The notes under the pieces are model-generated. The model did not search any database. It saw only the letters and a program-made list of their open reading frames with translations, and had not been told where the DNA came from. A stretch of DNA of 64,000 nucleotides from a virus, in IMG/VR virus record IMGVR_UViG_3300025000_000090, positions 3,120 to 67,119 of that record; one strand, given 5' to 3'. Shown here in pieces: positions 31,849 through 62,780 of the stretch. The number at the start of each line of letters is the position of its first letter. Within the stretch, counting starts at the first letter, position 1. The position numbers were made by a program, and so were the translations under genes.

Positions 31849-34800
31849 ATGAGTATTTTTGATAAACAAGATATAGATCCACAAACTGGATTAAATATAG
31901 AGCAAAAGGATAATTCAATATTTTCAAGAAGCAGACGTACACAACCAGACTTAACCCCAACGCAGGCTGGGGCTTATGGTGTTGGTCAATACTTTAGAGA
32001 TGAAAATTTGAATCTACAAGATGTAGTTGATGCTCCAGAAGAGTTAAACTACAATAGGGCCAATATGCAAACTGGTTGGGAATTACTTGGTAAATCATTA
32101 GCCCAAGGTGGTATTGAAGCTACTTTAGGTGCTGCTGAGGGCATTGCTTATGCTTTAGACTTTGAAGAAATATTTAACCATGATAAGCAAGCTAGTGAAG
32201 GTTTTGATAATTGGGCAGCTAAAGGTATCCGTGGATTTAAAGAAAATCTACAAGATGATTACTTTAAGATATATCAGACTAGAGATGCTGAATCTGGTAG
32301 TTTATTAGATAAAATGGGTGATGGAACTTGGTGGGCTTCTCAAGGTAAGACTATGGGGACTACATTAAGTTTAATGTTTCCAGCTATGGGAGTTGCTGGT
32401 ATTGCTGGTAAAATAGGTAAAGGTATAAATTTAGCAAGTAAAATAGGCAAGGCTACTGCTATTGGAGAAGCCGCTGCACAAGCTGGATTGCAAGGTACTG
32501 CTGCTGCTTTATTCAGTAGAAAGGCTGAATCTGCAATGGAAGCTAATCAGAAGTTTCAAGAAGACTATCAGATGCATCTGCAAGATCCTAAAACTCAAAT
32601 GGAGGCATTGCAACCATTTAAGCAAGAATTTGACCAAATTACATCTGAATATGATCAATTAAGTAAAACACTATACAATCCAAGTCAAGAAAACTATCAG
32701 TTACTTGAGGGACAAAGACAACAGAAATTATCAGAACTCCAAGGTAGGATGTCTCAGATTAAACAGACTGCTATTGGTAATGTTGATGAATTAGCTAAGA
32801 AGAAAGCTGGTGAAGCCGCATCTAAAGTATTTAAGGCCAATGCTGCTATGCTTCCTATTGACATACTTCAATATTCTTTGTTACTAAAACCATTATCTGG
32901 ACTTAAAAAGACTGCTGATACATTTGGTAAAAGTGTATTAGGCAAGACTGCATCTATATTAGCCATACAACCTGCATCTGAGGCTGTTGAAGAAGGATAT
33001 CAATTTGTTGCTAGTGAAGAGGCAACTGAATCAGTTAGGACTGGTGAGAAGATGTTTGGCGAAGGATTTGGCAATAGGATGTCTGAATATGTTAAAGATC
33101 CTGCGTTCCATGAATCTGTATTCTTAGGTGGTGCAATGGGATTGTTGTTTGAAGGAGCTGGGCCTGTTGCAAGAACTGCTGCTGAAAGAACAGCTAAATA
33201 TGCTAATGCATTAAACAGTACAAGAGTTGCTAAAGACCCTAATAAAACAGCAAAAGTAGCAAGTGAAAATAGAAAGGATTTTATTACAAAATCATTAATC
33301 AATGATAATGTTGATAGGAACAGAGAAGACTTCAAAAAAGTAGTTGAAACTGCTAAAAACAATAAGGATTTAACCAATGAACAAAGGGATGAAATTGTAA
33401 AAAATGCAGAAACTATTATTGGAGATCTTGATGATGTACAAAAATGGGAATCTGAATTAATATCTAATGAGAAATTCTCTGAGAATAATCAGTTAAGAAA
33501 TCAGTATGTTTTAGCTAAACTTGCTGATAAACATGTTAAAGAGAATATATCTAAATATAAACAAGCATATAACCAAGAATTAGGTAAGGTAGAACTTCCT
33601 GATTTAACTCCAGTTGGAGAAAATACTAAAGAGCACTTAAATGCTCTTAGAAATGAACTTATTGATGCTCAGATATATAAAAATAGTTTAGAGCATACTA
33701 TTAATGTAACTAATAATAGTGATAATAAAGAATTAAATGAAAAACAAAGAGCTAGTTTAACTTCTTATTTAAACAAACAATTAGAGGCTGCTAAAGTTGT
33801 AGTTGAAAATAAGACTAAGGAATTAGAGTCTAAATCTGGAGACTTTAGTCAATCAAAACTTGCTCCAGCTAATTTAGAGCAATTACAAGAAGCTAAAAAT
33901 TATTTAACTGAAAATCAAGTTAAGAATCAATTTATAGTTGCTCCAACATTATCTCAATTTCAGAAGCTAACTAAAGAAGAAGCAACTGCTAAAGAGAAAT
34001 CATTAATAAATACAATAGCTCAAGAAGGTAATAAAACCATTGAATCTGAGATTAAAACCAAACTCAATAGGGATTTGCCATTAGAATACTATGAGCAATT
34101 AGAATCTGAATTAAAAGATACTAAAATTAGCGAATCAACAAAGAAAACTCTTCAAAATAAGATTAAGCAATTAAGGATTAAGAAAGAAGCCGAGATTATT
34201 AAATCCTCTAAAAATAATGAGATTCCATTACCAGAAGAGCCTGTCAATAAAATGGATTTATCAAATGTACCAGAAGAGCAAAATACTGAATTTGATTTTG
34301 AGGGTAATGATGTTGAAGAAGCTGGTAATAATTCTGCAATATCTAAAAATCCAGAAGTTGTAGCTTTTGCTGAAGATATTTCTAATGGGGTTGTAAGAAA
34401 TACTCCAGGAGATCAACAATTTTATAAAAATAACTCTAATGATGTTGAAGGTGAATTACAAAGATTACAATTTGTTAAAAATTCAATCCCAAAAGAACTA
34501 ACTCCAGAAACAAATGCCGAAGATATTGTTGTAGAAACAGAAGAAAATAAAGAAGAATCTACTGATATAATTACACAAGAACTTCCAGAGGAACAAACTA
34601 TTGAGGAAGAAGAATTAGAATCTGAAGAAAGTAACTCTGATTATTCATTTGGTATTGCAAGGGTTAAGCAATACGATGTTAATAGTGATGGCAAGAAGAC
34701 TGATTCATATGATAAAGATGGTAATCTTATAATTACTGATAGAAATTTATTAGAATCATCTATTCCTGGCAAATTTGCTAAAGGAAATAAGGTTATTCTA

Positions 34801-37800
34801 GCTGTTGATATGGCTTTTATTGAAGGTAATAATAATAAGGATTACCTACCAATAGCAATACAAACTATTGAAGATCATGCTGCTGGTAAGAAACCTATTC
34901 TATGGTTAAGGGCCAAGAATCCTTCTAAATCAGATATTGCCATAAGGAAATATATGTTTAGTCAAGTGAATAAAACTAAAAAACCTAACTTTAGTTTTAC
35001 TGCTGAAACTACAATAGATCAGCATTTACCGGCTTGGATCAACAAAACTCGGCAAGAAAGACCCATTGCAGAACAACTAATAGATGGGAAGACTAATAAT
35101 GCACATATAGCTATTGGTAATCATGCTATGACTGTTAAAACAGTTGATAACAATGGTAATCATATTATAGCTGAAGATGTAAGGAAATTCCAACCAGGAA
35201 CTTCTTATATAATGATTAAGAATTCTGATAGCAAATGGTATGCACATAAAATATATCAGAAGCCAATATCTAATGAAAGATTTGACAGAATTAGGGCAGA
35301 ATGGATTCTTAATGCTCATCAAATGATTATTGAATTTGCTAAAGGAAATAAGATATTTGAAGATATTGAAGATTTAAGACATGAGGTTAGCAAATACTTA
35401 AACTTAAATCCTGCTGTGTTTAAGGATAAAAAAGCATCCATAAAATTAGCAACTAAAGAAGGTAAGTTTAATAACTTCTTTGGAATTGGACAAGAAGCTA
35501 ATGGTGATATAGAATTACAGTTACCAGGACACATGGATGGGGGTAAATCCTATCCATACTTAAAATTTACTATTAAGAATGTTAATGGTAAACTTTCTAT
35601 TGAGAAATATATTGGTAAAGATGACGATGTTGCTAGTTATGCTAAAATATCACAAACTGAGCTTTTAAAAGAATTTGAGCTTAGACTTACTAATATGTAT
35701 CCTAATATTAAAGAGATTACAGATCCTGAATTAAGAAATAACTTTACAAGATTACAAGTAACCAAAGAAGGATTAAAGAGGACTGAACCTCAGCATTACT
35801 ATCAATTTTTATCTGATAATAAGATTGCAGAAACAAGGATTAATGGACTTAAAACTCCAAGTGGAGAAGTTGTATTTACCACAACGCCAAGAATTGCTAT
35901 TAATAGCAACATTAATTCATTTACAGAAGTAAAGAAAGATTTGGTTGAGGAAGTTAAAAAACCTGAAGTTTCAAATAAAGACCTTCCAATTGAACCACAA
36001 AATTCATTCTTTAATAATATGGATAATGATTTTGAGGAACCAGTAGTGCCAGTGTCTGATGATTTAGTATCTCAAATAGACTTCAATAAAGCCTCTTTAA
36101 AGTCATTTAAAGCTAACAATGATATTGTTAATACGCTACATACAAATGTATTGAAAATACTTGATGCACAAAAGGCTAGAACTGGATATAATAACTTATA
36201 TAAAGCGGTTGCTCAAGTAAAGGCAGATCTTGAATTTGCTAGAGATAATTATAACAAATTTATTGATGCTAATTTGACTCCAGAGGAAGCTGCTAAGAAT
36301 GGTGTAACTACTCTTGGTTCTAGGAATCAGGCAATAGCTGAAACTATGACTAATATCTTAGACAACTTTGAAGAAAAAAGAAATTCTGATGGTAACATTG
36401 ACTTTATTGGTTATTCTGAATTCATTAATCTTAAAATTGATGAATCTTCGTATGAAATACTATCAGCAACTGATGATGAATATGAGGAAAATTCTGATGA
36501 GGGTGAGAAGAATTCAGATACAGAAGCTTATGCTGTAAATAGAGCATTTAAGGAAGATCCTGAGAAATCAATGGATGCTAAAGTTAGAAGGTTATTTTAT
36601 GATATTCCATTAAGAAATAATAAAAGACAGAAGGTTCCTAATCAAATATGGCAACCTATTTATATTGATTCAGGAGTTGTATTCAATTATCTGATTGATC
36701 AGCTTGTAGGTACTAATCCTGATGAAATAATGGATGAAATGCGTCAATTAGCCGAATACAATGATATAGCTAAGGATGTACTTGACAAACTTGACAAATT
36801 AGCTCAAACAAATCCAGATGTGGTTAAGAGTTTTATAGTTACCATGACTAAGCAACAAGCTAATTTCATGACCTTAAAATACATCTTCAGTAAAGATGCT
36901 GAATACTTGCCTACTGTTAAAATTATACATACTAATAGAAGTGGTATATCTGATGTGTTGGCTTCAACTTGGGAAGAAGTACTTAATTATGATCTGAACT
37001 CATCTAATGATTTTGAGACAATAAATGGCAATGTTAAAATAAGTGTCAAAAAGAGGGAAGAATTAGTTAAGAAATATAATGCTATTGGCAAGGATGATTT
37101 GAAGGGTGATTTCATAGCATCAATGGCTTCTATTGGAGTTAAGTTTTCAGAGAGGGCTTATGATCAATTACAGAAGGACTTTGAGAAAAAGAGGAAACCA
37201 TTCATTAGGAGATTTGGGGGAACAGCTCAGGGATCATCTTTTAAGAAATTCCTTGATAATGCATTTGGGCCTATATTCAATGATGCTATTGCAAAAGGTG
37301 ATAGTCCATATAGGGATCAATCTGCTGCTATTAAAAACTTAGCATTTTATCAATCTAAGTTTGAAACTGATGCTACATCTAGGATGCATAGAAACTCTAA
37401 TGGAGATTCTGTTTATAGCTACGTTACTCCTAGCCACATGAGTAGAATATTAAATGATTTGAAGAATAATCCAGCTAAAGTTGAAGAACTTATGATGGAT
37501 AAGTTTTCTGGTAAATCTACAATATTGAAGGATATTCAAAAGTATAATCAATTGAAAGCATTGCCTATATTAGATGGCAATCAGCAAGTAGAACTTGAAA
37601 GATTGAGTGAAGAAATAAAGAGTTTAGGTGTTGTTTACTTTGATGCATCTAAAAATGATGTAAGTGGAGCGTTTCCGAGAAATTATGAAAAACAGAGTAT
37701 TGTAGAGAGGGAATTAACTAAGATATCTCTATATATAAATAATGGTAGTAATATATCTCAGATATTTACACCAACTCCTTCTGATAAAACAATGTTTACT

Positions 37801-40800
37801 TTGTTTCAGAGCTTGAGGATTAATACAAGATCAATAGTATTAGCTGATGGTCAATTGAAGATAACTGGTAAGGAAAAATATAAGAGTGAGGCTAATCCAA
37901 TTATAAACAAATTGAAAGACTTATTAGTTCAATCTGAGATAGATAGGATTAACCATGTTTCGATGTTGTTTAGTCAAGCTGTTAAAAATAAAGATTTTAG
38001 TAACCTAATTGAAGGATATCATTACATCAAAGTTGGTAAGGATTATAAACCAGGTGCTGGTACTTATTTCTTCTTTATACCAGAGCTAAACAAAGTTGTT
38101 AATGAACAAAACATAAGGAATCAGGAAACTGGTGAATTATCTGTTGATTTTGCTGATTCTAAGGTAGTTAAACAAGTAATGTTATCTGGTATTCAAAGTT
38201 TAGTTAAAGAAAAATTAGCTATATGGGAAAGAATTGGTATTACTAAAGATGGAATATTTAAAAGTGTTGATAAATCAGTACTTGAGAAATATGGTAAGGA
38301 TCCTTCTAATTTAGCCATATCTTATGTTATTAATAGCATGTCTGTATTAGCTAATGAATATATGCTTATTACCAATGATCCTGCTAGATTTGGTAAAACT
38401 GATGATTATAGTGGTAACTATGAAGACTATGAGCAACTATTAGAATCTACATCTGCTAATATGTTTAAGCGTATTGCTAAAGATATAGCTCCAGGAACAC
38501 AAGCTGAATGGGAAGTTAATCATTATAGGGTTATGATGATTGCTGAACCTAAATTTGCCAGTGAATTGGCTTCATACAATGAAACTTTTAAAAAGGCTTA
38601 TGGAGACATTAAACTTGCAGATGCACAAGAGTGGACTACATTAGAGGAACATATAAATGTACTTAAAGCTTATGGTGAAATTACTAATGAAGAATATGAT
38701 GATATATTAAAGAATAAGGAGAATCTTTCTGATACTCAAATTGAGATTATATTGCAACCAATGAAGCCAGTACAGGTTTTTAATGTATTTGAGGCTGATT
38801 TGAAAGAAAACATACCTTATTATATTAAATCATCTTCATTCCCATTAATTCCTCAAATAGCTAAACAGTTTCCACAATTGAATAGAATGATGCAAATAAT
38901 GTATAAGAATGATATTCAAAGGGTAGCTCCAAAATCAGCTACTAAAACTGGTTATAGGAATGCCGTAGATTTAACTTCAACTAAGGACTTTGAGAAGGAT
39001 GGTATTACTTTAAAGAAGAATAAGAGAACTGGATTGGATAAAGCTATTACTTTAAGTAGAGATGGATTTAGGATTCAACAGAAATTCCCTTATGATTTAG
39101 AGAAGGAAACTGATTTAGAAGGTAGCCAATTAAGGAGATTACTTACTGCTAATATGATTGATACTGATGGTAATGCATTAGTGTTTGATTTGAATGGTAA
39201 ACAAAAATCTGGATTAGAGTTAAAGGAACTTAATGATGAAATTCATACTGAATTATATAATAGAAGGTTTAATGATTTATTAGAAAAACTTAGTGCCAAT
39301 GAAACTGTTAATGGTATTACCCTTAATGATGTAAATGAATTAAGGAAATTAATGGTTGAGGAAGCTGTTAATAAGGAATATGGCTACAATGAAATATTAG
39401 CATTAAGGACTGTAGAGTTTAATGGTAAAAATACATTTGAAACGCCATTATTTTTTCACCCAATGATTCATAAGATTGAGTCTATATTGACCTCTATAAT
39501 GAAAAATAGGGTGTTAAAGTTAAAACTCCCAGGGAAATCATCTGTACAAGGATCTCCTTATGGTTTTGTAACCACATTAGAAGAGTTTAACAAGACTATT
39601 GGAAAAAACAATGTTATCATATATTCTAAGGATTATGATGCTACTAAAGGTCTTAGTTACAAGAAAAATGCAGATGGAAGTATAGAAGCTGAGATATTCT
39701 TACCAATACCATTTAAAAAAAATGGTAAGCCTGTAAATACTTCTGAATATACCAAAGATGGATATATTGACTTAACCAAACTCAGCCCACAAATGCTTGA
39801 GATGATTGGATATAGAATTCCAACTCAAAAGGCTAGTAGCATGATGAGGTTGAAAGTTGCTGGATTCTTACCACAAACTGTAGGTGACTTAATCATAACT
39901 CCTCCAGAATTATATGCTCAAATGGGTACTGATAATGACGGTGATAAACTGAAACTACATTGGTACAACTATAATATTGCATCTACTGGTAAGATTCAAA
40001 AAATAGCTATTGGAAGTGTTGTTAAAGACATGAGTAATGAGCAATTACAGAATCTTTCAATAGACATTATGCATTCTGTGATGAGACATCCAGAGATTGT
40101 TAATAGAACAATAAATCCTCTTGAAAATAAAGATATTCAGAATGTTGTAGATGCTCTTGATAAAGCTAAAGGTAAAAAAACATCAACTAATAAAATGGGA
40201 TTATCGGTAATAAATGATAATATGCAGAGTGATATGGTAGCTATTCAAGCTGCTGGTAAAGCTGGTATTGCAATAGAATCTGTAGCTGTAACAATGCATG
40301 CATTAGGACAATATGCAGGACTTTATATTACTGCAAATCCTAATAGATCCACATCTGTTAAATTTAGCAATACTGATGAAACTGCTGGTGAATTTACTGA
40401 TAAAGCCGAAGGCAATACTGTTGATGATTCACTTAATTATGAACATCCACAATCAGAAGGAGCCTGGAGATTAGATAAGATATTTGGATTTGATGGTAAG
40501 ATGATTTCAGATGTATTGGTAAACATACAGAATGAATCAGTGGATAATGCTAACAATAGGTTATTGTTTCCAATGAATTTAAATGAGGTTACGTTTGATG
40601 TAGCTAACCTTATCGCTAGGGCTGGATTCAATGAAAGGTTCATTGGATTCTTCTTAAATCAACCTATTATATTGGAATATGTTGAAGAATTAAATAAACT
40701 TAATAGATTTGATGAGAAGAATTTTACTCCAAATAAAGTTAAACAACTTCAACTTAGGATGCTTAATTCTGTTGGTGCAAAAATTGAGTTTGATGATTTA

Positions 40801-42828
40801 AATGATCTTTCAACAAGTAATCTTTCAATGGCTGCAATGGAAGCTGGTTTAACTGATAAGAATAAAGAAACCCAGCTAAAAGCATTAACAAACTTTATTA
40901 TTTACAATGATATATCAAAAGACTTAAATAAGATTCAGAGGACAGCCAATGTTGATAATAAGTTCTTAGGTTCTAACTTAAATGGAGTTGTTTCTAAATT
41001 GAAAAACTTTGAATCTGACATTAAGGGTACTTATATTGGTAATGGTGAAAATTTACATGTTGGAAGATATGGAGATACCACCCAGGGTAGCGCTTACAAG
41101 GTGGGTATTGAGAAATCAGTTAAATTATATTCTAATATACTACCAATAAACACCAATTTGATTAACAATTTATATGAGCAATTAGTTGAGCAAGCTGGTA
41201 GGGAATTATCCGAAGATGAATTACTTGATTTCAATATTGGGATTAGGAATGCTATCTACAATGAAGCAATTAAGGCTGTATTTGATATAAAAGATATACA
41301 AGCATACAGGACTTCATTATTACATGGAGATAATGCATTGGGGAATAGGGTTGTTAAGTTTAAAAAAGGTGATAATGTTCCATCATTCATAAAATCATTG
41401 AATGTAAACATTCCTACTGTAAAAGGAGATCCTATTACAATTACACATTCATCATCGAAGATTAACAAGAAAACCGTTGATTTGCAGAAACAACAAGATT
41501 GGTTGGATATGCTTAATTCTAAAGATGAAGTTACTAGGAAGTTGGCATTTGACTTAATGATTTATTCTATAACATTTGGTACTCAGAGAACTGCTAATGA
41601 TTTTGGTAGATTCTTGCCTAATGATTTTGTAGTATCTTCTGGATTATCTAAGTATTTAACTGGAGTTAATTTTAATGATGTTGATATGTCTGAATTAAGC
41701 AAGAATATGGTTGCTAATTTTAAAGTTCAATATATACAACATCTACCAAAGTATGCTAAGCTAGTTGCTGAAGAATCTATTGAAAGCAGAACTGATGATT
41801 CAATAACATTGAAAGTTAATGTTTGGAAGAAAGCTCCACACTTAATTGAAGAGTTCAATGACAAAACTTTTGAAACTACTTTATATAAGAAAGAAAAAGG
41901 TTTGTTATATAAGAAGATTGATTTACTTGGTAAAGGTGAATTAACTGCTTATAATATCTCTGATGCTTATGGTAAGAGTAAATCTGCAATAGTTAATACA
42001 GAGGAAAATAATGTTGAACCAACTTTTTTAGAGGCAAAACAGTCTAAGAAGATATTGGATGGTTTAGGATTTAACAAGGGTGTTTCTGGACTATTGACAG
42101 GACTCTCAAAAAGTGCGACAACTGAAGCTCATAAGGCATTAGCTGATTATTACCTAAGTAAGTCAGAACTATTAGACGCATTTAAATTAGAGAAATTTGA
42201 TCCAGAAAATCCAAAACATCATTCTTCTGGTAACAATTTAATGGTTAAGGGTAGAGTTGTTTCTGAAAATGGATTGATTCTTATTAATGAGAATGCTATT
42301 GAGAATAAGGCTGATTTAGAGCATACAATATTACATGAAGTAACTCATGCTTATACGGTTGAATTAGAGAAAAATAGGGCATTATTAACTCCAGAACAAT
42401 CTAAATTGTTTAAGGATTTAGATACTATGGTAGAATATGTTAAAAAGCAGAAAGGACATGAAAAATACTCTTATTATTTATCAAATACTAGGGAGTTTAT
42501 TTCAGGAACAATGTCTAATGCTGATTTTCAAGAATATCTAAATAGTGTTAATTACAAAACATCAAATATATTAGAGAAGATATTAGAGTTCTTTAAAAAG
42601 CTTGTTGAGCTTGATGTAAGAGTTAATAGTATGTTAGCTAATTCAATGCAGAATATAATCAAGATAATTGATTCTTCAGGTAAGGAACAACTACAATCAA
42701 TTAGGAAGGAAGCAAGTTTTGGATTAACAGTAGATGATATAGCAGAAGCTGAAGAAATAAGAAAAGAGTGTCAAGGATTAGGAAGTTCAATAAAAAGTAG
42801 TAAATTTGCAAAATTATTTAAAGAATAG
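31849..42828 (+). CDS. Giant virion-associated DNA-dependent RNA polymerase with C-terminal zincin
   Basis: 3659 aa. DPBB-RNAP motifs 'SDKT', 'KRI...PG', 'ADAQ', 'QPMKP', 'YIKSS', 'GYRIPTQ..SSM', 'MGTDNDGDKL' and 'VDNA'. HEVTH...'EFIS' near the C-terminus and TM-like segments at the N-terminus. Confidence 0.92.
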   Translation: MSIFDKQDIDPQTGLNIEQKDNSIFSRSRRTQPDLTPTQAGAYGVGQYFRDENLNLQDVVDAPEELNYNRANMQTGWELLGKSLAQGGIEATLGAAEGIAYALDFEEIFNHDKQASEGFDNWAAKGIRGFKENLQDDYFKIYQTRDAESGSLLDKMGDGTWWASQGKTMGTTLSLMFPAMGVAGIAGKIGKGINLASKIGKATAIGEAAAQAGLQGTAAALFSRKAESAMEANQKFQEDYQMHLQDPKTQMEALQPFKQEFDQITSEYDQLSKTLYNPSQENYQLLEGQRQQKLSELQGRMSQIKQTAIGNVDELAKKKAGEAASKVFKANAAMLPIDILQYSLLLKPLSGLKKTADTFGKSVLGKTASILAIQPASEAVEEGYQFVASEEATESVRTGEKMFGEGFGNRMSEYVKDPAFHESVFLGGAMGLLFEGAGPVARTAAERTAKYANALNSTRVAKDPNKTAKVASENRKDFITKSLINDNVDRNREDFKKVVETAKNNKDLTNEQRDEIVKNAETIIGDLDDVQKWESELISNEKFSENNQLRNQYVLAKLADKHVKENISKYKQAYNQELGKVELPDLTPVGENTKEHLNALRNELIDAQIYKNSLEHTINVTNNSDNKELNEKQRASLTSYLNKQLEAAKVVVENKTKELESKSGDFSQSKLAPANLEQLQEAKNYLTENQVKNQFIVAPTLSQFQKLTKEEATAKEKSLINTIAQEGNKTIESEIKTKLNRDLPLEYYEQLESELKDTKISESTKKTLQNKIKQLRIKKEAEIIKSSKNNEIPLPEEPVNKMDLSNVPEEQNTEFDFEGNDVEEAGNNSAISKNPEVVAFAEDISNGVVRNTPGDQQFYKNNSNDVEGELQRLQFVKNSIPKELTPETNAEDIVVETEENKEESTDIITQELPEEQTIEEEELESEESNSDYSFGIARVKQYDVNSDGKKTDSYDKDGNLIITDRNLLESSIPGKFAKGNKVILAVDMAFIEGNNNKDYLPIAIQTIEDHAAGKKPILWLRAKNPSKSDIAIRKYMFSQVNKTKKPNFSFTAETTIDQHLPAWINKTRQERPIAEQLIDGKTNNAHIAIGNHAMTVKTVDNNGNHIIAEDVRKFQPGTSYIMIKNSDSKWYAHKIYQKPISNERFDRIRAEWILNAHQMIIEFAKGNKIFEDIEDLRHEVSKYLNLNPAVFKDKKASIKLATKEGKFNNFFGIGQEANGDIELQLPGHMDGGKSYPYLKFTIKNVNGKLSIEKYIGKDDDVASYAKISQTELLKEFELRLTNMYPNIKEITDPELRNNFTRLQVTKEGLKRTEPQHYYQFLSDNKIAETRINGLKTPSGEVVFTTTPRIAINSNINSFTEVKKDLVEEVKKPEVSNKDLPIEPQNSFFNNMDNDFEEPVVPVSDDLVSQIDFNKASLKSFKANNDIVNTLHTNVLKILDAQKARTGYNNLYKAVAQVKADLEFARDNYNKFIDANLTPEEAAKNGVTTLGSRNQAIAETMTNILDNFEEKRNSDGNIDFIGYSEFINLKIDESSYEILSATDDEYEENSDEGEKNSDTEAYAVNRAFKEDPEKSMDAKVRRLFYDIPLRNNKRQKVPNQIWQPIYIDSGVVFNYLIDQLVGTNPDEIMDEMRQLAEYNDIAKDVLDKLDKLAQTNPDVVKSFIVTMTKQQANFMTLKYIFSKDAEYLPTVKIIHTNRSGISDVLASTWEEVLNYDLNSSNDFETINGNVKISVKKREELVKKYNAIGKDDLKGDFIASMASIGVKFSERAYDQLQKDFEKKRKPFIRRFGGTAQGSSFKKFLDNAFGPIFNDAIAKGDSPYRDQSAAIKNLAFYQSKFETDATSRMHRNSNGDSVYSYVTPSHMSRILNDLKNNPAKVEELMMDKFSGKSTILKDIQKYNQLKALPILDGNQQVELERLSEEIKSLGVVYFDASKNDVSGAFPRNYEKQSIVERELTKISLYINNGSNISQIFTPTPSDKTMFTLFQSLRINTRSIVLADGQLKITGKEKYKSEANPIINKLKDLLVQSEIDRINHVSMLFSQAVKNKDFSNLIEGYHYIKVGKDYKPGAGTYFFFIPELNKVVNEQNIRNQETGELSVDFADSKVVKQVMLSGIQSLVKEKLAIWERIGITKDGIFKSVDKSVLEKYGKDPSNLAISYVINSMSVLANEYMLITNDPARFGKTDDYSGNYEDYEQLLESTSANMFKRIAKDIAPGTQAEWEVNHYRVMMIAEPKFASELASYNETFKKAYGDIKLADAQEWTTLEEHINVLKAYGEITNEEYDDILKNKENLSDTQIEIILQPMKPVQVFNVFEADLKENIPYYIKSSSFPLIPQIAKQFPQLNRMMQIMYKNDIQRVAPKSATKTGYRNAVDLTSTKDFEKDGITLKKNKRTGLDKAITLSRDGFRIQQKFPYDLEKETDLEGSQLRRLLTANMIDTDGNALVFDLNGKQKSGLELKELNDEIHTELYNRRFNDLLEKLSANETVNGITLNDVNELRKLMVEEAVNKEYGYNEILALRTVEFNGKNTFETPLFFHPMIHKIESILTSIMKNRVLKLKLPGKSSVQGSPYGFVTTLEEFNKTIGKNNVIIYSKDYDATKGLSYKKNADGSIEAEIFLPIPFKKNGKPVNTSEYTKDGYIDLTKLSPQMLEMIGYRIPTQKASSMMRLKVAGFLPQTVGDLIITPPELYAQMGTDNDGDKLKLHWYNYNIASTGKIQKIAIGSVVKDMSNEQLQNLSIDIMHSVMRHPEIVNRTINPLENKDIQNVVDALDKAKGKKTSTNKMGLSVINDNMQSDMVAIQAAGKAGIAIESVAVTMHALGQYAGLYITANPNRSTSVKFSNTDETAGEFTDKAEGNTVDDSLNYEHPQSEGAWRLDKIFGFDGKMISDVLVNIQNESVDNANNRLLFPMNLNEVTFDVANLIARAGFNERFIGFFLNQPIILEYVEELNKLNRFDEKNFTPNKVKQLQLRMLNSVGAKIEFDDLNDLSTSNLSMAAMEAGLTDKNKETQLKALTNFIIYNDISKDLNKIQRTANVDNKFLGSNLNGVVSKLKNFESDIKGTYIGNGENLHVGRYGDTTQGSAYKVGIEKSVKLYSNILPINTNLINNLYEQLVEQAGRELSEDELLDFNIGIRNAIYNEAIKAVFDIKDIQAYRTSLLHGDNALGNRVVKFKKGDNVPSFIKSLNVNIPTVKGDPITITHSSSKINKKTVDLQKQQDWLDMLNSKDEVTRKLAFDLMIYSITFGTQRTANDFGRFLPNDFVVSSGLSKYLTGVNFNDVDMSELSKNMVANFKVQYIQHLPKYAKLVAEESIESRTDDSITLKVNVWKKAPHLIEEFNDKTFETTLYKKEKGLLYKKIDLLGKGELTAYNISDAYGKSKSAIVNTEENNVEPTFLEAKQSKKILDGLGFNKGVSGLLTGLSKSATTEAHKALADYYLSKSELLDAFKLEKFDPENPKHHSSGNNLMVKGRVVSENGLILINENAIENKADLEHTILHEVTHAYTVELEKNRALLTPEQSKLFKDLDTMVEYVKKQKGHEKYSYYLSNTREFISGTMSNADFQEYLNSVNYKTSNILEKILEFFKKLVELDVRVNSMLANSMQNIIKIIDSSGKEQLQSIRKEASFGLTVDDIAEAEEIRKECQGLGSSIKSSKFAKLFKE
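42778..42808 (+). promoter_or_regulatory. Putative promoter for ferritin inside the vRNAP 3' end
   Basis: TTAG(42778)-N19-TAAATTTG(42801), ending 25 nt before the ferritin ATG. Confidence 0.45.
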
Positions 42829-55165: not shown

Positions 55166-55855
55166 TTATATCCATTCTGGGTGGTTTTTTTCAATCCATT
55201 CTCTATTAATAGGTCCTTCTGTTGGCAAATTGACTAAACGGTTATATTCAGAATTAATGTCTACATCTTTAATGTTCTTTAAATAAGAAATATTAACACT
55301 TGATTTACTATAGTTTGCTGTAGGAATTCTATAATTAAGTTCAAATAAATAGATTTCATTGACATATGCCTTAGAAATCAAGTCTGAGTAAGCCCTACCA
55401 AATAAAAACCAATATTCATCAACCCCCAACATGCTTGTATAAATTTTTGCATAAGAAGATCCACTTTTTTTTGACTTATGACTAGTTATTTTAACTATTC
55501 TATCTAAAACTATTATTTTGGATTTATCTTTGTCAAAATCTAGCAAATCATATACTTCGTGCGTGGCAAACAAATGTTTGTACATGTCACAGTCATCCAA
55601 TGGATTATAAAAAATTGGGACTCCAATTAACTCTGCTTCTTCATTCACTGATTGCATAATATCAATATAACCTTCGTGTTCTTCTAATTTAGGTGTTACT
55701 TTGCAATCTTCCATTCCTATACTAAATAGACTAAATTGACCTTTATTTGACTCATTTATTTTAGCAGAACTTTTGTAAGCCCCAATTATCTTATCGTAAT
55801 TCTTTATTAAAGTCTTTCTCCATCTGAAAGTTTCTTCAATTTGTTGTTTGTTCAT
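55166..55855 (-). CDS. Stand-alone C-terminal fragment of DNA polymerase III alpha (clamp-binding motif and OB fold)
   Basis: 'R.TLI...GQFSLF', 'EEAELIGVPIFYNPLD' (compare DnaE E.E.LG.Y.S.HPL), then OB-like 'I..ITSH.SKKSG..YA.I...FLF..Y'. Confidence 0.75.
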   Translation of the reverse strand: MNKQQIEETFRWRKTLIKNYDKIIGAYKSSAKINESNKGQFSLFSIGMEDCKVTPKLEEHEGYIDIMQSVNEEAELIGVPIFYNPLDDCDMYKHLFATHEVYDLLDFDKDKSKIIVLDRIVKITSHKSKKSGSSYAKIYTSMLGVDEYWFLFGRAYSDLISKAYVNEIYLFELNYRIPTANYSKSSVNISYLKNIKDVDINSEYNRLVNLPTEGPINREWIEKNHPEWI

Positions 55856-56022
55856 TTTAATAGTTCTGGATTTTCATAGATATTTCCAATAATTCCAAAT
55901 CTAGATGTATTATTAGATATATTCCATCCATTATCTTTAAAATCCCATTGCACTAAGTAGGTTAAATATATTCCACCGCTCAAAACATCACCATCATAAA
56001 TTTCTTTTTCCTCTTGTGTCAT
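55852..56022 (-). CDS. YopX-family C-terminal fragment (not in ORF track)
   Basis: 56 aa with 'KEIYDGDVL' and 'IIGNIYENPELL'. ATGA overlaps on both sides. Confidence 0.75.
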   Translation of the reverse strand: MTQEEKEIYDGDVLSGGIYLTYLVQWDFKDNGWNISNNTSRFGIIGNIYENPELLK

Positions 56023-56678
56023 AATTTATTTCTATTAGAATTAGTCCATGTGTCTATAGATCCATCTTTATGCTCTTCCACCCATTTTGTCATATATTCA
56101 CAAAGTTGATTGTGCCACTTTTTTTGACCTTCTACTGGTTGCCAATGATTAGTTTCAGATTTTTTTGCATTTTCTAAATATTCATTAATTTCTCCAGTTA
56201 CATTTGCTAATAATAAATATAACCATCTTGGAGTAACAATAAAAGATAGTTTATCAGCGAAGCAAAGTTTTGAAGGTTGTGCATCATACTTTTTTGCATA
56301 GTACCTTGAATGGTACATTGAAAAGTTTCTCCATCTATTGCATTCATTACATAATATTGGGTGACAATTTTCAATGGTAGTACGAGGATTATAATCTCTG
56401 ATATTATCCAAATTCGACCTTTTATAACAATCAGTATGATTACAGTTTTTATCAAATAAAAACCCCATTATTTTAGCCCCAAGTTCAACATGCATTTCTC
56501 CTTCTAGTCCGTCCATATTAGGCTTTCCCCAATATCCTAAATCATGTACAAAAAATGCAATCCATATTCTTGGATCAAATGGAAATCCGTATAACTTAAT
56601 CCAGGCTATTGCAACAAACCAAGGATGTAGCAAAAAACAATGCACGCCAAATAATACACTCTTAGTTCCTATTCTCAT
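56019..56678 (-). CDS. HD-superfamily phosphohydrolase-like protein
   Basis: H...H, 'VHDLG', 'H...GA', 'YHSR' and 'LCFADKL'. Confidence 0.65.
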   Translation of the reverse strand: MRIGTKSVLFGVHCFLLHPWFVAIAWIKLYGFPFDPRIWIAFFVHDLGYWGKPNMDGLEGEMHVELGAKIMGFLFDKNCNHTDCYKRSNLDNIRDYNPRTTIENCHPILCNECNRWRNFSMYHSRYYAKKYDAQPSKLCFADKLSFIVTPRWLYLLLANVTGEINEYLENAKKSETNHWQPVEGQKKWHNQLCEYMTKWVEEHKDGSIDTWTNSNRNKL

Positions 56679-56701
56679 AACTTATAAATTCTTTATTCTA
56701 T

Positions 56702-57043
56702 TCAGTTGCTTTTTTTAATTACTTCTTTAACAAATTGATATCCTTCATACATTTTAACATCCCATTTTACAGGAGGTATTCGATTATGTTTGTCCATTAA
56801 TATTAGAGCTTCAAGCATCAAAGGAGCAGCCGCAATTAGTTTTTCATTTGCCTCAGATTCTTTACATTTAAATAATGTGTTTTTATCTTTGAATTTGCTC
56901 TTACCGACTTCTTTAAAATTGTGGCGGATAACAGTTGCTACTTCAATCCTGCCATATTCTCCTAATATCGTATATTGATAATGATTGTCTTTTATGTGGT
57001 TTTCTGCTACAATCCATTCTCCTTTAGTGTGTTCTGTTTTCAT
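56702..57043 (-). CDS. Conserved phage hypothetical protein
   Basis: 'HTKGEW...EAN..LIAAAP.MLEAL'. Confidence 0.75.
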   Translation of the reverse strand: MKTEHTKGEWIVAENHIKDNHYQYTILGEYGRIEVATVIRHNFKEVGKSKFKDKNTLFKCKESEANEKLIAAAPLMLEALILMDKHNRIPPVKWDVKMYEGYQFVKEVIKKSN

Positions 57044-57276
57044 AATTTTGCTTTTAATACATTTACTGGTTTTTCCCCAGATTCAATCTTCTTCATATCA
57101 TAAGCTAGAGCAGCCATATGTTCACCTTCGTTTGTGTATGGATACAGTTTATGTGCTCTCAATCCTTCAATAGTAAAATTCATTTGCCAATAGTGTTTCC
57201 TATTAATATGATTATATGTATAACACACACCTTTATATTTACTTGTTATATTGTGTAGTCTGAATAGATTTTTCAT
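57040..57276 (-). CDS. Stand-alone AP2 DNA-binding domain protein
   Basis: 'TSKYKGV.Y...YW...E..AALAYD...G..PVN', with no HNH part. Confidence 0.7.
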   Translation of the reverse strand: MKNLFRLHNITSKYKGVCYTYNHINRKHYWQMNFTIEGLRAHKLYPYTNEGEHMAALAYDMKKIESGEKPVNVLKAKL

Positions 57277-57871
57277 AGTTACTAATTAATTCATTAAACA
57301 TAATTCTGTCATTTATATTTGTTAGTAATTTACGTATTTTTTTAATAGTATCAATTTTATTTTGAATATTTTTATTATTCTTTTTTCTGTTTGTTTTATT
57401 ATTAGTAAAGCTTTTTGCTAATTTAATATATAAATCATTAAAATCAGAATCAAACTCTCTTAGATACGAAATTTTTCTATTGCTATTTATAACAGTGGAA
57501 TGATCCTTACTTCCCAAATTACTACCTATAAACATTAATGAGCATTTTGTATATTCTAATGCTATTGATTGGCATATCTGCCTTGGTATCAATATTTCAG
57601 GTTTTCTGCTTTTAAGAAAGATATCAGTTTCATTCATTTTATAATATGAAGCGACTATTCTTTTTATAGTCAATAACTGCTTTCTATTGTTCTGAATTCT
57701 ATCATAACTTAATGATTTGTGTTTACCAGTAACGTTGTTAATCATCAGCTCTTTAGATACGGAATAATATCCTCTTTTTAATGTTTTTGAAATATCCCTC
57801 AATGAACTACCTTTTTTATACATAGCATTAGCTATAAGTAGTTCATGAGGTTTCCATACAATATTGTTCAT
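57239..57871 (-). CDS. HTH plus DnaA C-terminal (domain IV) DNA-binding protein
   Basis: 'IVASYY...DI..KSR...ILIPRQI...T..SL..IG..LG.KDHSTVINS..KI'. There is an N-terminal HTH ('GSSLRDISKTLKRGY.SV') and no AAA+ domain. Confidence 0.88.
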   Translation of the reverse strand: MNNIVWKPHELLIANAMYKKGSSLRDISKTLKRGYYSVSKELMINNVTGKHKSLSYDRIQNNRKQLLTIKRIVASYYKMNETDIFLKSRKPEILIPRQICQSIALEYTKCSLMFIGSNLGSKDHSTVINSNRKISYLREFDSDFNDLYIKLAKSFTNNKTNRKKNNKNIQNKIDTIKKIRKLLTNINDRIMFNELISNYEKSIQTTQYNK

Positions 57872-62045: not shown

Positions 62046-62780
62046 ATGAGTAAGAAACTAACAACTAAAGAATTTATAGATCGTACTAAAAAATTACACA
62101 ACAATAAATTTGATTATACTTTAGTCAAATATATTAGTAATCAAATCAAAGTTAAAATCATATGTCCTATTCATGGTGAGTTTGAACAACGTCCAGCAAC
62201 TCATTTACTTGGTATAGGTTGTGAAAAATGTGGTGTAGAAAAGAGAGCCTCAAAAAAAAGATTTTCATTGAGTGAGTTTATTTTAAAATCAAATACAGTT
62301 CATAACAATAATTATGATTATTCATTAGTGAAATATAAAACTATTTTTATTAAAGTTGACATAATATGTAAAAAATGTAACACAATATTTAATCAGGCTT
62401 CATATAGTCATTTAAAAAAACATGGTTGTCCAAAATGCAATTTAGGCTCTTTAACAGGCTGGTCAAAAACACAATGGATTGATTTTTGTGAATTAAAAAC
62501 AAGGGAACCTCTTTTATATATTATAAGATGTTATAATGAAAATGAAGAGTTTATTAAAATTGGAAGAACATCAACATCTACCATAAAAAGATTTAAGAAA
62601 AAACAAACTATGCCCTATGAATATGAGGTAATTAAGGAAATTAAAGGCTCTCCGGGGTTCATATTTGATAAAGAGGTTAAATTACATAGATTATATAAAG
62701 AGTATAAATATAAACCTTTAATTCATTTTGGTGGTGAAACAGAATGTTTTAATATTTCAATACTCAAAGATTTTGTTTAA
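62046..62780 (+). mobile_element. Homing endonuclease with two DUF723-like zinc repeats and a GIY-YIG/T5orf172-like domain
   Basis: Two 'H...YDY..V.Y...KV.IIC..H/C..F.Q...HL...GC.KC' units, then 'LYII...FIKIGRT...RF...E..LH...GGETECF'. It is inverted relative to its neighbours. Confidence 0.85.

Follow-up and report, generated by a model that had tools for sequence, protein, structure and literature searches.

The early/replication operon of an environmental crAss-like phage, carried by IMG/VR record IMGVR_UViG_3300025000_000090, encodes two host-derived replication proteins reduced to their binding parts. One is a stand-alone counterpart of the C-terminal region of DnaE, the alpha subunit of DNA polymerase III (Pol III), and is referred to below as the DnaE-tail protein; the other is a DnaA domain IV protein, the DnaA-tail protein. 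Both genes lie within positions 55166-57871 of the window, i.e., the 64,000 bases analyzed out of the 67,119 of this linear virus record, whose completeness is estimated at ~70%. Tentatively, and with somewhat less than even confidence, the pair is proposed to let the phage take over the host beta clamp and Pol III for its own replication. An earlier note on this DNA had seen here a module that interferes with host replication. Its reading of the two key proteins was correct, and its view that the phage keeps only the binding parts of host replication proteins stands.

Used as a single query, the DnaE-tail protein returned nothing useful from Pfam, PHROGs, NCBIfam or PDB. When 1.84 billion representatives were searched with a profile made from four homologues, 60 proteins were retrieved at E<=1e-3. 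The only multidomain proteins among them were DnaE fragments, which were also the weakest matches (E 3e-5 to 9e-4). One of these (P0061) carries DNA_pol3_alpha, finger, HHH_6 and OB domains and two others (P0057 and P0059) carry HHH_6 and OB, and all three align with the profile from just past HHH_6 into the OB fold. The 48-sequence family profile matched residues 894-1090 of E. coli Pol III alpha (5fku_A, E 4.4e-7) and residues 945-1096 of Thermus alpha (2hpi_A, E 2e-3). The long subfamily described below gave the same two matches on its own, with E values of 1.4e-7 and 1.1e-4, respectively. In 5fku_A, however, the clamp motif had been altered by design to approach the consensus (PMC11139829, available portion), and the score against this chain may be raised for that reason.

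Structural modeling points the same way. With the 48-sequence alignment, AlphaFold2 gave a model with a pLDDT of 89.6 and a pTM of 0.77, in which only the linker 36-60 is uncertain; the first model, made from 4 sequences, was poor (pLDDT 47.2), found no Foldseek match at E<=0.001 and was discarded. The top Foldseek match of the better model is DnaE1 of M. tuberculosis (7pu7_A). VIA-align placed residues 6-193 of the model on residues 912-1099 of that chain with a Z score of 12.1 over 157 residues, as against Z<=10 over ~90 residues for generic OB folds. The predicted layout consists of a helical hairpin, a disordered linker with the clamp motif, a helical connector, an OB fold whose region is basic (pI ~9.7) and a short tail. 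Towards the tau-binding C-terminal domain, the profile alignments stop at E. coli residue 1090, with an envelope reaching 1131-1136, and the short tail of the phage protein (residues 196-229) has no assignment. A Pfam search of the protein revealed no PHP, palm or fingers domain (PF02811, PF07733, PF17657), and PF07733, the only one of these covered by the genome-wide search, was absent from the whole record in six frames. No match to the single-stranded DNA-binding protein (SSB) model PF00436 was obtained for the protein, and SSB structures appeared only among the generic OB matches. On these profiles and this model, the 229-aa protein is a stand-alone copy of the DnaE C-terminal region without catalytic domains. 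This agrees with the earlier note, which had read a DnaE fragment lacking PHP and palm domains and had suggested an AlphaFold run, whose best structural alignment indeed proved to be DnaE.

The linker contains a predicted clamp-binding motif, QFSLF, which aligns with the clamp motif of 5fku_A. All 48 aligned family members carry Q-[LMF]-[SDTN]-[LMI]-[FY], with Q in 48/48, L, M or F in 48/48, S or D in 46/48, L in 45/48 and F in 47/48 at the successive positions, so the note's expectation of a clamp-binding part in the DnaE fragment is borne out at the level of the motif. The canonical clamp motif is Q-aliphatic-x-[L/M]-[F/L], of which QLxLF is the strongest binder and QADMF of E. coli alpha a weaker one (PMC11139829, available portion). 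Judged by its residues, the family motif fits the highest-affinity consensus QLxLF better than QADMF does. Two further residues, E73 and G78, are invariant (48/48) and match the DnaE ExxLG connector in the profile alignments. Binding of the protein to the host clamp and to single-stranded DNA is inferred from the motif and the modeled OB fold.

The family comprises ~60 clusters (50% identity) of stand-alone proteins that are 183-307 aa long, mostly 220-290 aa, and all members begin at profile position 1-8. In a tree, the 48 stand-alone proteins separate from six DnaE/OB rows with a split support of 100/99. They fall into a short subfamily (17 rows), to which the window protein belongs, and a long subfamily (31 rows), whose members bear an additional domain at the C terminus. 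Compared with the copy in G001, a complete relative that is discussed below, the window gene shows a pN of 0.37 below a pS of 0.71, similar to the exonuclease gene (0.39 and 0.70). No dN/dS ratio is given because synonymous sites are saturated between the two genomes (pS 0.6-0.7); the dN/dS check proposed earlier is thus answered in part, with pN below pS in both key genes and a ratio that is unusable. The family matches no Pfam or PHROG model, and tblastn with four members found no match in GenBank phages. Scans of viral contigs with A1, P0005, P0028 and the G001 protein returned nothing or only G001 itself, and neither metagenome contigs scanned with A1 and P0028 nor genome contigs scanned with P0023 gave a match. 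The family is regarded as previously undescribed; the IMG label of one member reads 'DNA polymerase III alpha subunit'.

The DnaA-tail protein is recognized more directly. Residues 68-134 match PF08299 (Bac_DnaA_C) at E 3.2e-18 and 65.9 bits (cut-off 31.5), covering profile positions 3-69 of 69, and domain IV of E. coli DnaA (1j1v_A) is matched at E 5.8e-13. No AAA Pfam match was found in the protein, and its TIGR00362 match is confined to positions 330-435 of 437 (71.7 bits vs a cut-off of 343.9), so that the AAA+ part is missing. The 210-aa protein is thus a DnaA domain IV helix-turn-helix without ATPase, as the earlier note had proposed. Its N-terminal stretch weakly resembles HTH_38 (E 0.0033, below cut-off) and its C-terminal tail is basic and of low complexity. 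Over the 87 residues aligned to E. coli DnaA 378-464 (1j1v), 'PRQ' and 'DH(S/T)TV' are kept. R399, which lies in the basic loop, P423, D433, H434, T435 and H439 of E. coli DnaA are DnaA-box contact residues. The equivalents of R399, D433 and H434 are kept in the window protein, whereas T435 is replaced by S, P423 by M and H439 by N; the G001 copy is also changed at the D433/H434 pair. Compared with E. coli DnaA (domain IV, residues 374-467), the Pfam match and the basic-loop Arg are shared, whereas domains I-III are absent and the weak N-terminal helix-turn-helix and the basic tail are additions.

Table 1. Features of the pair and of the ORFs between and beside it (positions in the window).
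Feature	Position	Strand	Basis or remark
DnaE-tail protein, 229 aa	55166..55855	-	stand-alone homologue of DnaE (Pol III alpha) C-terminal region
Predicted beta-clamp-binding motif QFSLF, residues 40-44	55724..55738	-	translation; in low-pLDDT linker 36-60
OB-fold domain, residues 111-194	55274..55525	-	strand-strand-strand-helix-strand-strand, pLDDT >90; OB and DnaE structural matches
DnaA domain IV-only protein, 210 aa	57239..57871	-	PF08299, part of TIGR00362, 1j1v_A
Helix-turn-helix core codons, residues 68-134	57470..57670	-	Pfam stretch
78-aa ORF, no family	57040..57276	-	no Pfam (E<=0.1), PHROG or NCBIfam match; no G001 homologue
113-aa ORF, phrog_1273 (phage family without assigned function)	56702..57043	-	PHROG E 4.9e-10; absent from G001
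219-aa ORF, no family assigned	56019..56678	-	51% identical homologue in G004
YopX-like ORF, 56 aa	55852..56022	-	PF09643 E 5.2e-9, profile 60-128 of 128, C-terminal half only
GIY-YIG homing-endonuclease-like gene, 349 aa	54053..55102	-	PF01541 E 1.7e-7; phrog_20046 E 5e-38

The phage is assigned, on its proteins, to distant, environmental crAss-like phages because its major capsid protein is related to those of cr85_1, PhiCrAssBcn and Cellulophaga phi14:2 (32-33% identity over 95-99% of the length); portal and head PHROGs are also matched in the window. Structural genes, including the portal, the major head protein and a 3,659-aa ORF, occupy the + strand from 1 to 47.5 kb. The early/replication run follows on the - strand from 47.5 to 64 kb and leaves the contig end, where its last ORF is cut. 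Besides the pair, this run holds genes for a 5'-3' exonuclease and a Prim-Pol (Pfam). The genes of 55166-57871, which the note had already placed in a single gene run of the - strand, are tightly packed: neighbors overlap by 1-38 nt or lie no more than 63 nt apart.

Records of relatives were gathered through the capsid protein and the 5'-3' exonuclease; most are fragments, and five are at least 99% complete (Table 2). In three record sets, the DnaE-tail profile matched 1/3, 0/5 and 0/12 records and PF08299 matched 1/3, 1/5 and 0/12. The pair occurs together in only two records, the window's own and G001, so the co-occurrence asked about in the earlier note is only partly observed: in G001 the two genes are nearly adjacent, one 74-aa ORF apart, whereas G007 has DnaA_C alone and the other relatives lack the pair. 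Six-frame searches of G001 found no PolA, PolB or DnaE core, and its replication genes include a DnaB-like helicase (DnaB_C), a Toprim primase, AAA_24, a DEAD helicase and the exonuclease. A further record, G002, is a fragment of the same phage that stops 1.5 kb past the exonuclease. By contrast, none of the 5/5 PolA-bearing records (G004, G005, G006, G007 and G009) has a DnaE-tail gene. In G004, PolA, in three pieces, is flanked by the exonuclease gene on one side and by a gene of 176 aa on the other. In G001, the homologue of this 176-aa gene (37% identity) comes after a block made up of the DnaA-tail gene, the DnaE-tail gene, a 212-aa ORF and DUF932. Being flanked by the same genes, PolA of G004 and the pair of G001 occupy the same slot, whereas PolA is located elsewhere in G005 and G007. 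In the window's record, which is ~70% complete, no PolA or PolB was found.

Table 2. Replication genes in the relatives that are at least 99% complete.
Genome	DnaE-tail	DnaA_C	PolA	PolB	DnaE core
G001	yes	yes	no	no	no
G004	no	no	yes	no	no
G005	no	no	yes	no	no
G007	no	yes (elsewhere)	yes	no	no
G010	no	no	no	no	no

The take-over reading is favored because G001, the one complete genome in which the pair occurs, lacks a recognizable polymerase and would depend on the clamp. The DnaE-tail protein would dock via QFSLF into the hydrophobic pocket of the host beta clamp, its OB fold may hold the single-stranded template, and in this way it could bring host clamps, and thereby host Pol III, to phage forks or keep them there. 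Such forks would be assembled from a DnaB-type helicase and a primase that the phage itself encodes. What the DnaA-tail protein would contribute is sequence-specific binding to double-stranded DNA, by which it either recognizes an origin or a regulatory site or competes for DnaA boxes. That the host alpha subunit meets a competitor for the clamp would then be a side effect, and the module would take over the host replisome rather than only block it, marking a lineage without its own DNA polymerase gene. A bolder form of the proposal, which is considered unlikely, holds that the DnaE-tail family is a third state of crAss-like 'polymerase switching', in which the mimic replaces PolA or PolB and, together with a DnaA domain IV origin binder, plugs host clamp and Pol III into the phage helicase-primase fork while displacing host alpha.

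Several observations weigh against this take-over. Only one complete genome, G001, ties the loss of a polymerase to the DnaE-tail gene, and polymerase loss does not require the gene, as the complete G010 has neither. The latter, 92,303 b long with terminal repeats, is a complete crAss-like relative with no recognizable polymerase and neither gene of the pair. The window's phage may still encode PolA, since its record is incomplete and its upstream block resembles that of the PolA-bearing G005 and G006, in which PolA lies ~20 kb upstream. An unrecognized polymerase is possible in G001 as well, because large ORFs of 672, 403 and 358 aa have no family there. The two genes of the window have four unrelated ORFs between them, and the clamp motif here has F at position 2, a residue present there in only 2/48 members. 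The DnaA-tail protein evolves fast, with 30% identity to the G001 copy, a pN of 0.45 and a pS of 0.62, and thus a smaller gap between the two than in the DnaE-tail gene. Moreover, canonical DnaA boxes (TTATNCACA) are not enriched in the window (1 found vs 5.4 expected), and no iterons or tandem repeats were found near the module. Of the G001 ORFs, that of 672 aa (L015:16612-18630, - strand) recurs with 100% identity in G002, and G005 has a weak homologue of 712 aa; the 672-aa ORF was dropped as a hidden polymerase, having no Pfam, PHROG, PDB or Atlas support and a homologue in a PolA-bearing phage.

Pure interference, in which the DnaA-tail protein blocks host oriC initiation through DnaA boxes and the DnaE-tail protein sequesters the clamp and perhaps single-stranded DNA until host replication is shut down, seems somewhat unlikely. 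It would explain why both proteins keep binding parts without catalytic parts and why the clamp motif is nearer the high-affinity consensus than that of E. coli alpha, and the R399, D433 and H434 equivalents kept in the 1j1v alignment, with the roles given above, would suit it. Clamp-targeting phage proteins do exist, for instance gp168 of Twort (PMC11139829, available portion). Nevertheless, a phage such as G001, without a recognizable polymerase, should need the host clamp and Pol III, so redirecting the clamp is likelier than disabling one that the phage itself requires. Canonical DnaA-box specificity is also doubtful, because the P423 and H439 equivalents are changed and in G001 those of D433 and H434 too. 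The DnaA_C-only genes of the group adjoin replication genes. In G007, for instance, the 140-aa DnaA_C-only ORF overlaps the end of a putative replication gene, an ORF of 470 aa that contains a Walker-A-like motif and matches no Pfam family; this suggests that such proteins work with phage replication proteins. A dedicated interference module, as proposed in the earlier note, is not established: the pair is limited to two records, the window's own included, G007 has DnaA_C alone, DnaA boxes are not enriched and the contacts are only partly kept. At the same G007 locus (L027:29-1860, + strand), a DUF3850 gene and a probable cytosine methyltransferase follow the DnaA_C-only ORF.

The two genes may also form no functional pair, with the DnaA-tail protein acting as a transcription or origin regulator and the DnaE-tail protein as a clamp-tethered single-stranded DNA factor (SSB-like, a processivity or a repair helper) for a phage polymerase encoded in the missing 30% or unrecognized, a reading about as unlikely as pure interference. 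The occurrence of DnaA_C without the DnaE-tail gene in G007, the four ORFs between the genes in the window, the mosaic replication region and the separation of polymerase loss from the DnaE-tail gene in G010 are consistent with this. Canonical SSB (PF00436) was found in 0/7 related records, so an OB protein could fill that role. On the other hand, the absence of the gene from all five PolA-bearing records is unexpected for a PolA helper, the two genes are nearly adjacent in G001, and the best structural match spans the whole C-terminal region of alpha, beyond an SSB-type OB fold. Finally, it is very improbable that the genes are decaying remnants, or that one piece of a split DnaE gene is seen here and the catalytic part is encoded at another place. 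Homology is indeed confined to the last fifth of DnaE, and the IMG name of one member would fit. However, PF07733 gave no match at E<=1 in the window's record and G001/G002, and none at E<=0.1 in 7 related records, G009 and G010. In addition, the proteins of the ~60 clusters are alike in length and each has a start of its own, the motif is invariant, pN is lower than pS, and the family makes up a separate clade in the tree.

The remaining claims of the earlier note concern the neighboring ORFs (Table 1). The lone AP2 domain (PF00847) is not confirmed, as the 78-aa ORF has no Pfam match at E<=0.1 and no relevant PDB match, the best being an unrelated monooxygenase at E 0.084. Likewise, the HD hydrolase (PF01966) is unconfirmed: the 219-aa ORF has no Pfam (E<=0.1), PHROG or PDB match. 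An 'HD' dipeptide is present in its sequence, and the one lead in favor is to an HD cluster of the ESM-Atlas (rank 21, score 0.92, 125 shared features). Within this ORF, positions 56476-56593 share 78% DNA identity over 118 bases with five 41.8-kb 'Caudoviricetes sp.' records from Manatee Spring, in which the matching region is annotated 'bH1327 protein'. The note had also described intact ORFs amid broken neighbors. Both key genes are intact, but the broken neighbors are not supported: relatives carry homologues of the 160-aa Prim-Pol ORF that match it in size (159 and 153 aa), and the last ORF is simply cut by the contig end. Among the supposed broken neighbors, only the 56-aa YopX-like ORF is partial against its Pfam model.

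The GIY-YIG gene directly downstream is a mobile insertion outside the pair. A second homing-endonuclease-like gene (phrog_681/phrog_559) lies in the replication run at 62046-62780 on the + strand, and neither has a counterpart in G001. Among the structural genes, the 3,659-aa ORF (31849-42828, + strand) has no PHROG match and by its position would be a giant virion or RNA-polymerase-like protein typical of crAss-like phages. In three complete relatives, PolA is found in 2-3 separate pieces or ORFs (G004:C1:59582-61763, G005:C1:36337-39241 and G007:C1:84902-86342). This is suggestive of insertions (introns, inteins or endonuclease genes) of the kind reported in crAss-like phages. In G001, a TnpB/IS605 OrfB-type gene (OrfB_IS605 and Cas12f1-like TNB; L015:5564-6736, + strand) lies on the opposite strand inside the replication module and overlaps a 301-aa ORF. 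The early module of the same phage also encodes a ThiF-family protein and an RNA-ligase-like protein (PHA02142 OB and RNA_ligase), at L014:18326-18985 (- strand) and L014:8828-9949 (- strand), respectively.

In polymerase-less phages with SPP1- and lambda-type replication, host Pol III is recruited to a helicase and a primase that the phage supplies. G001 is similar in having helicase and primase genes and no polymerase gene, while the use of a copied clamp-binding tail of the polymerase in SPP1- or lambda-type systems is not known to us. Compared with the region it resembles by both profile and fold (E. coli ~894-1090, covering the end of the beta-binding domain, the internal clamp motif and the OB fold), the DnaE-tail protein keeps the motif at the same position, the connector and a basic OB fold, and its family motif is closer to the consensus. 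It differs in being a separate small protein with its own start and without PHP, palm, thumb, fingers or (HhH)2; the short subfamily also appears to lack most of the tau-binding end, and the long one has its extra C-terminal domain. Among small phage proteins, gp168 of Twort is a clamp inhibitor that binds the DNA channel (PMC11139829), and MuC of Mu enlists the clamp for late transcription (PMC12867686), as described in the available portions of these papers. The DnaE-tail protein is likewise expected to engage host DnaN. Unlike gp168, it would engage the canonical hydrophobic pocket by means of a motif taken from a polymerase, and it carries an OB fold predicted to bind single-stranded DNA.

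The accessible text of Yutin et al. (2021; PMC7886860) describes in situ replacement of polymerases as frequent in crAss-like phages and also treats polymerase-less lineages. The relatives compared here similarly carry PolA or PolB, or neither, with PolA of G004 in the slot of the G001 pair. The main text of that paper nowhere mentions DnaA or polymerase III, and its accessible passages describe no DnaE-tail gene in a polymerase-less genome. The earlier note knew of no such pairing in crAss-like phages, and in the literature search, likewise, no account turned up of DnaE C-terminal or DnaA domain IV proteins that stand alone in these phages; the supplements of PMC7886860, which possibly list the gene content of polymerase-less genomes, lie outside that search. 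The pair can be counted among host-derived phage proteins engaging the replisome or clamp.

As no Pfam or PHROG model matches, annotation pipelines miss the family or name it 'DNA polymerase III alpha subunit', a label that could wrongly imply a phage-encoded polymerase. For Bacteroidota hosts, the DnaE-tail protein is predicted to be a clamp ligand of natural origin and high affinity. A stand-alone clamp-binding tail in a polymerase-less lineage would offer a testable handle on how such phages replicate.

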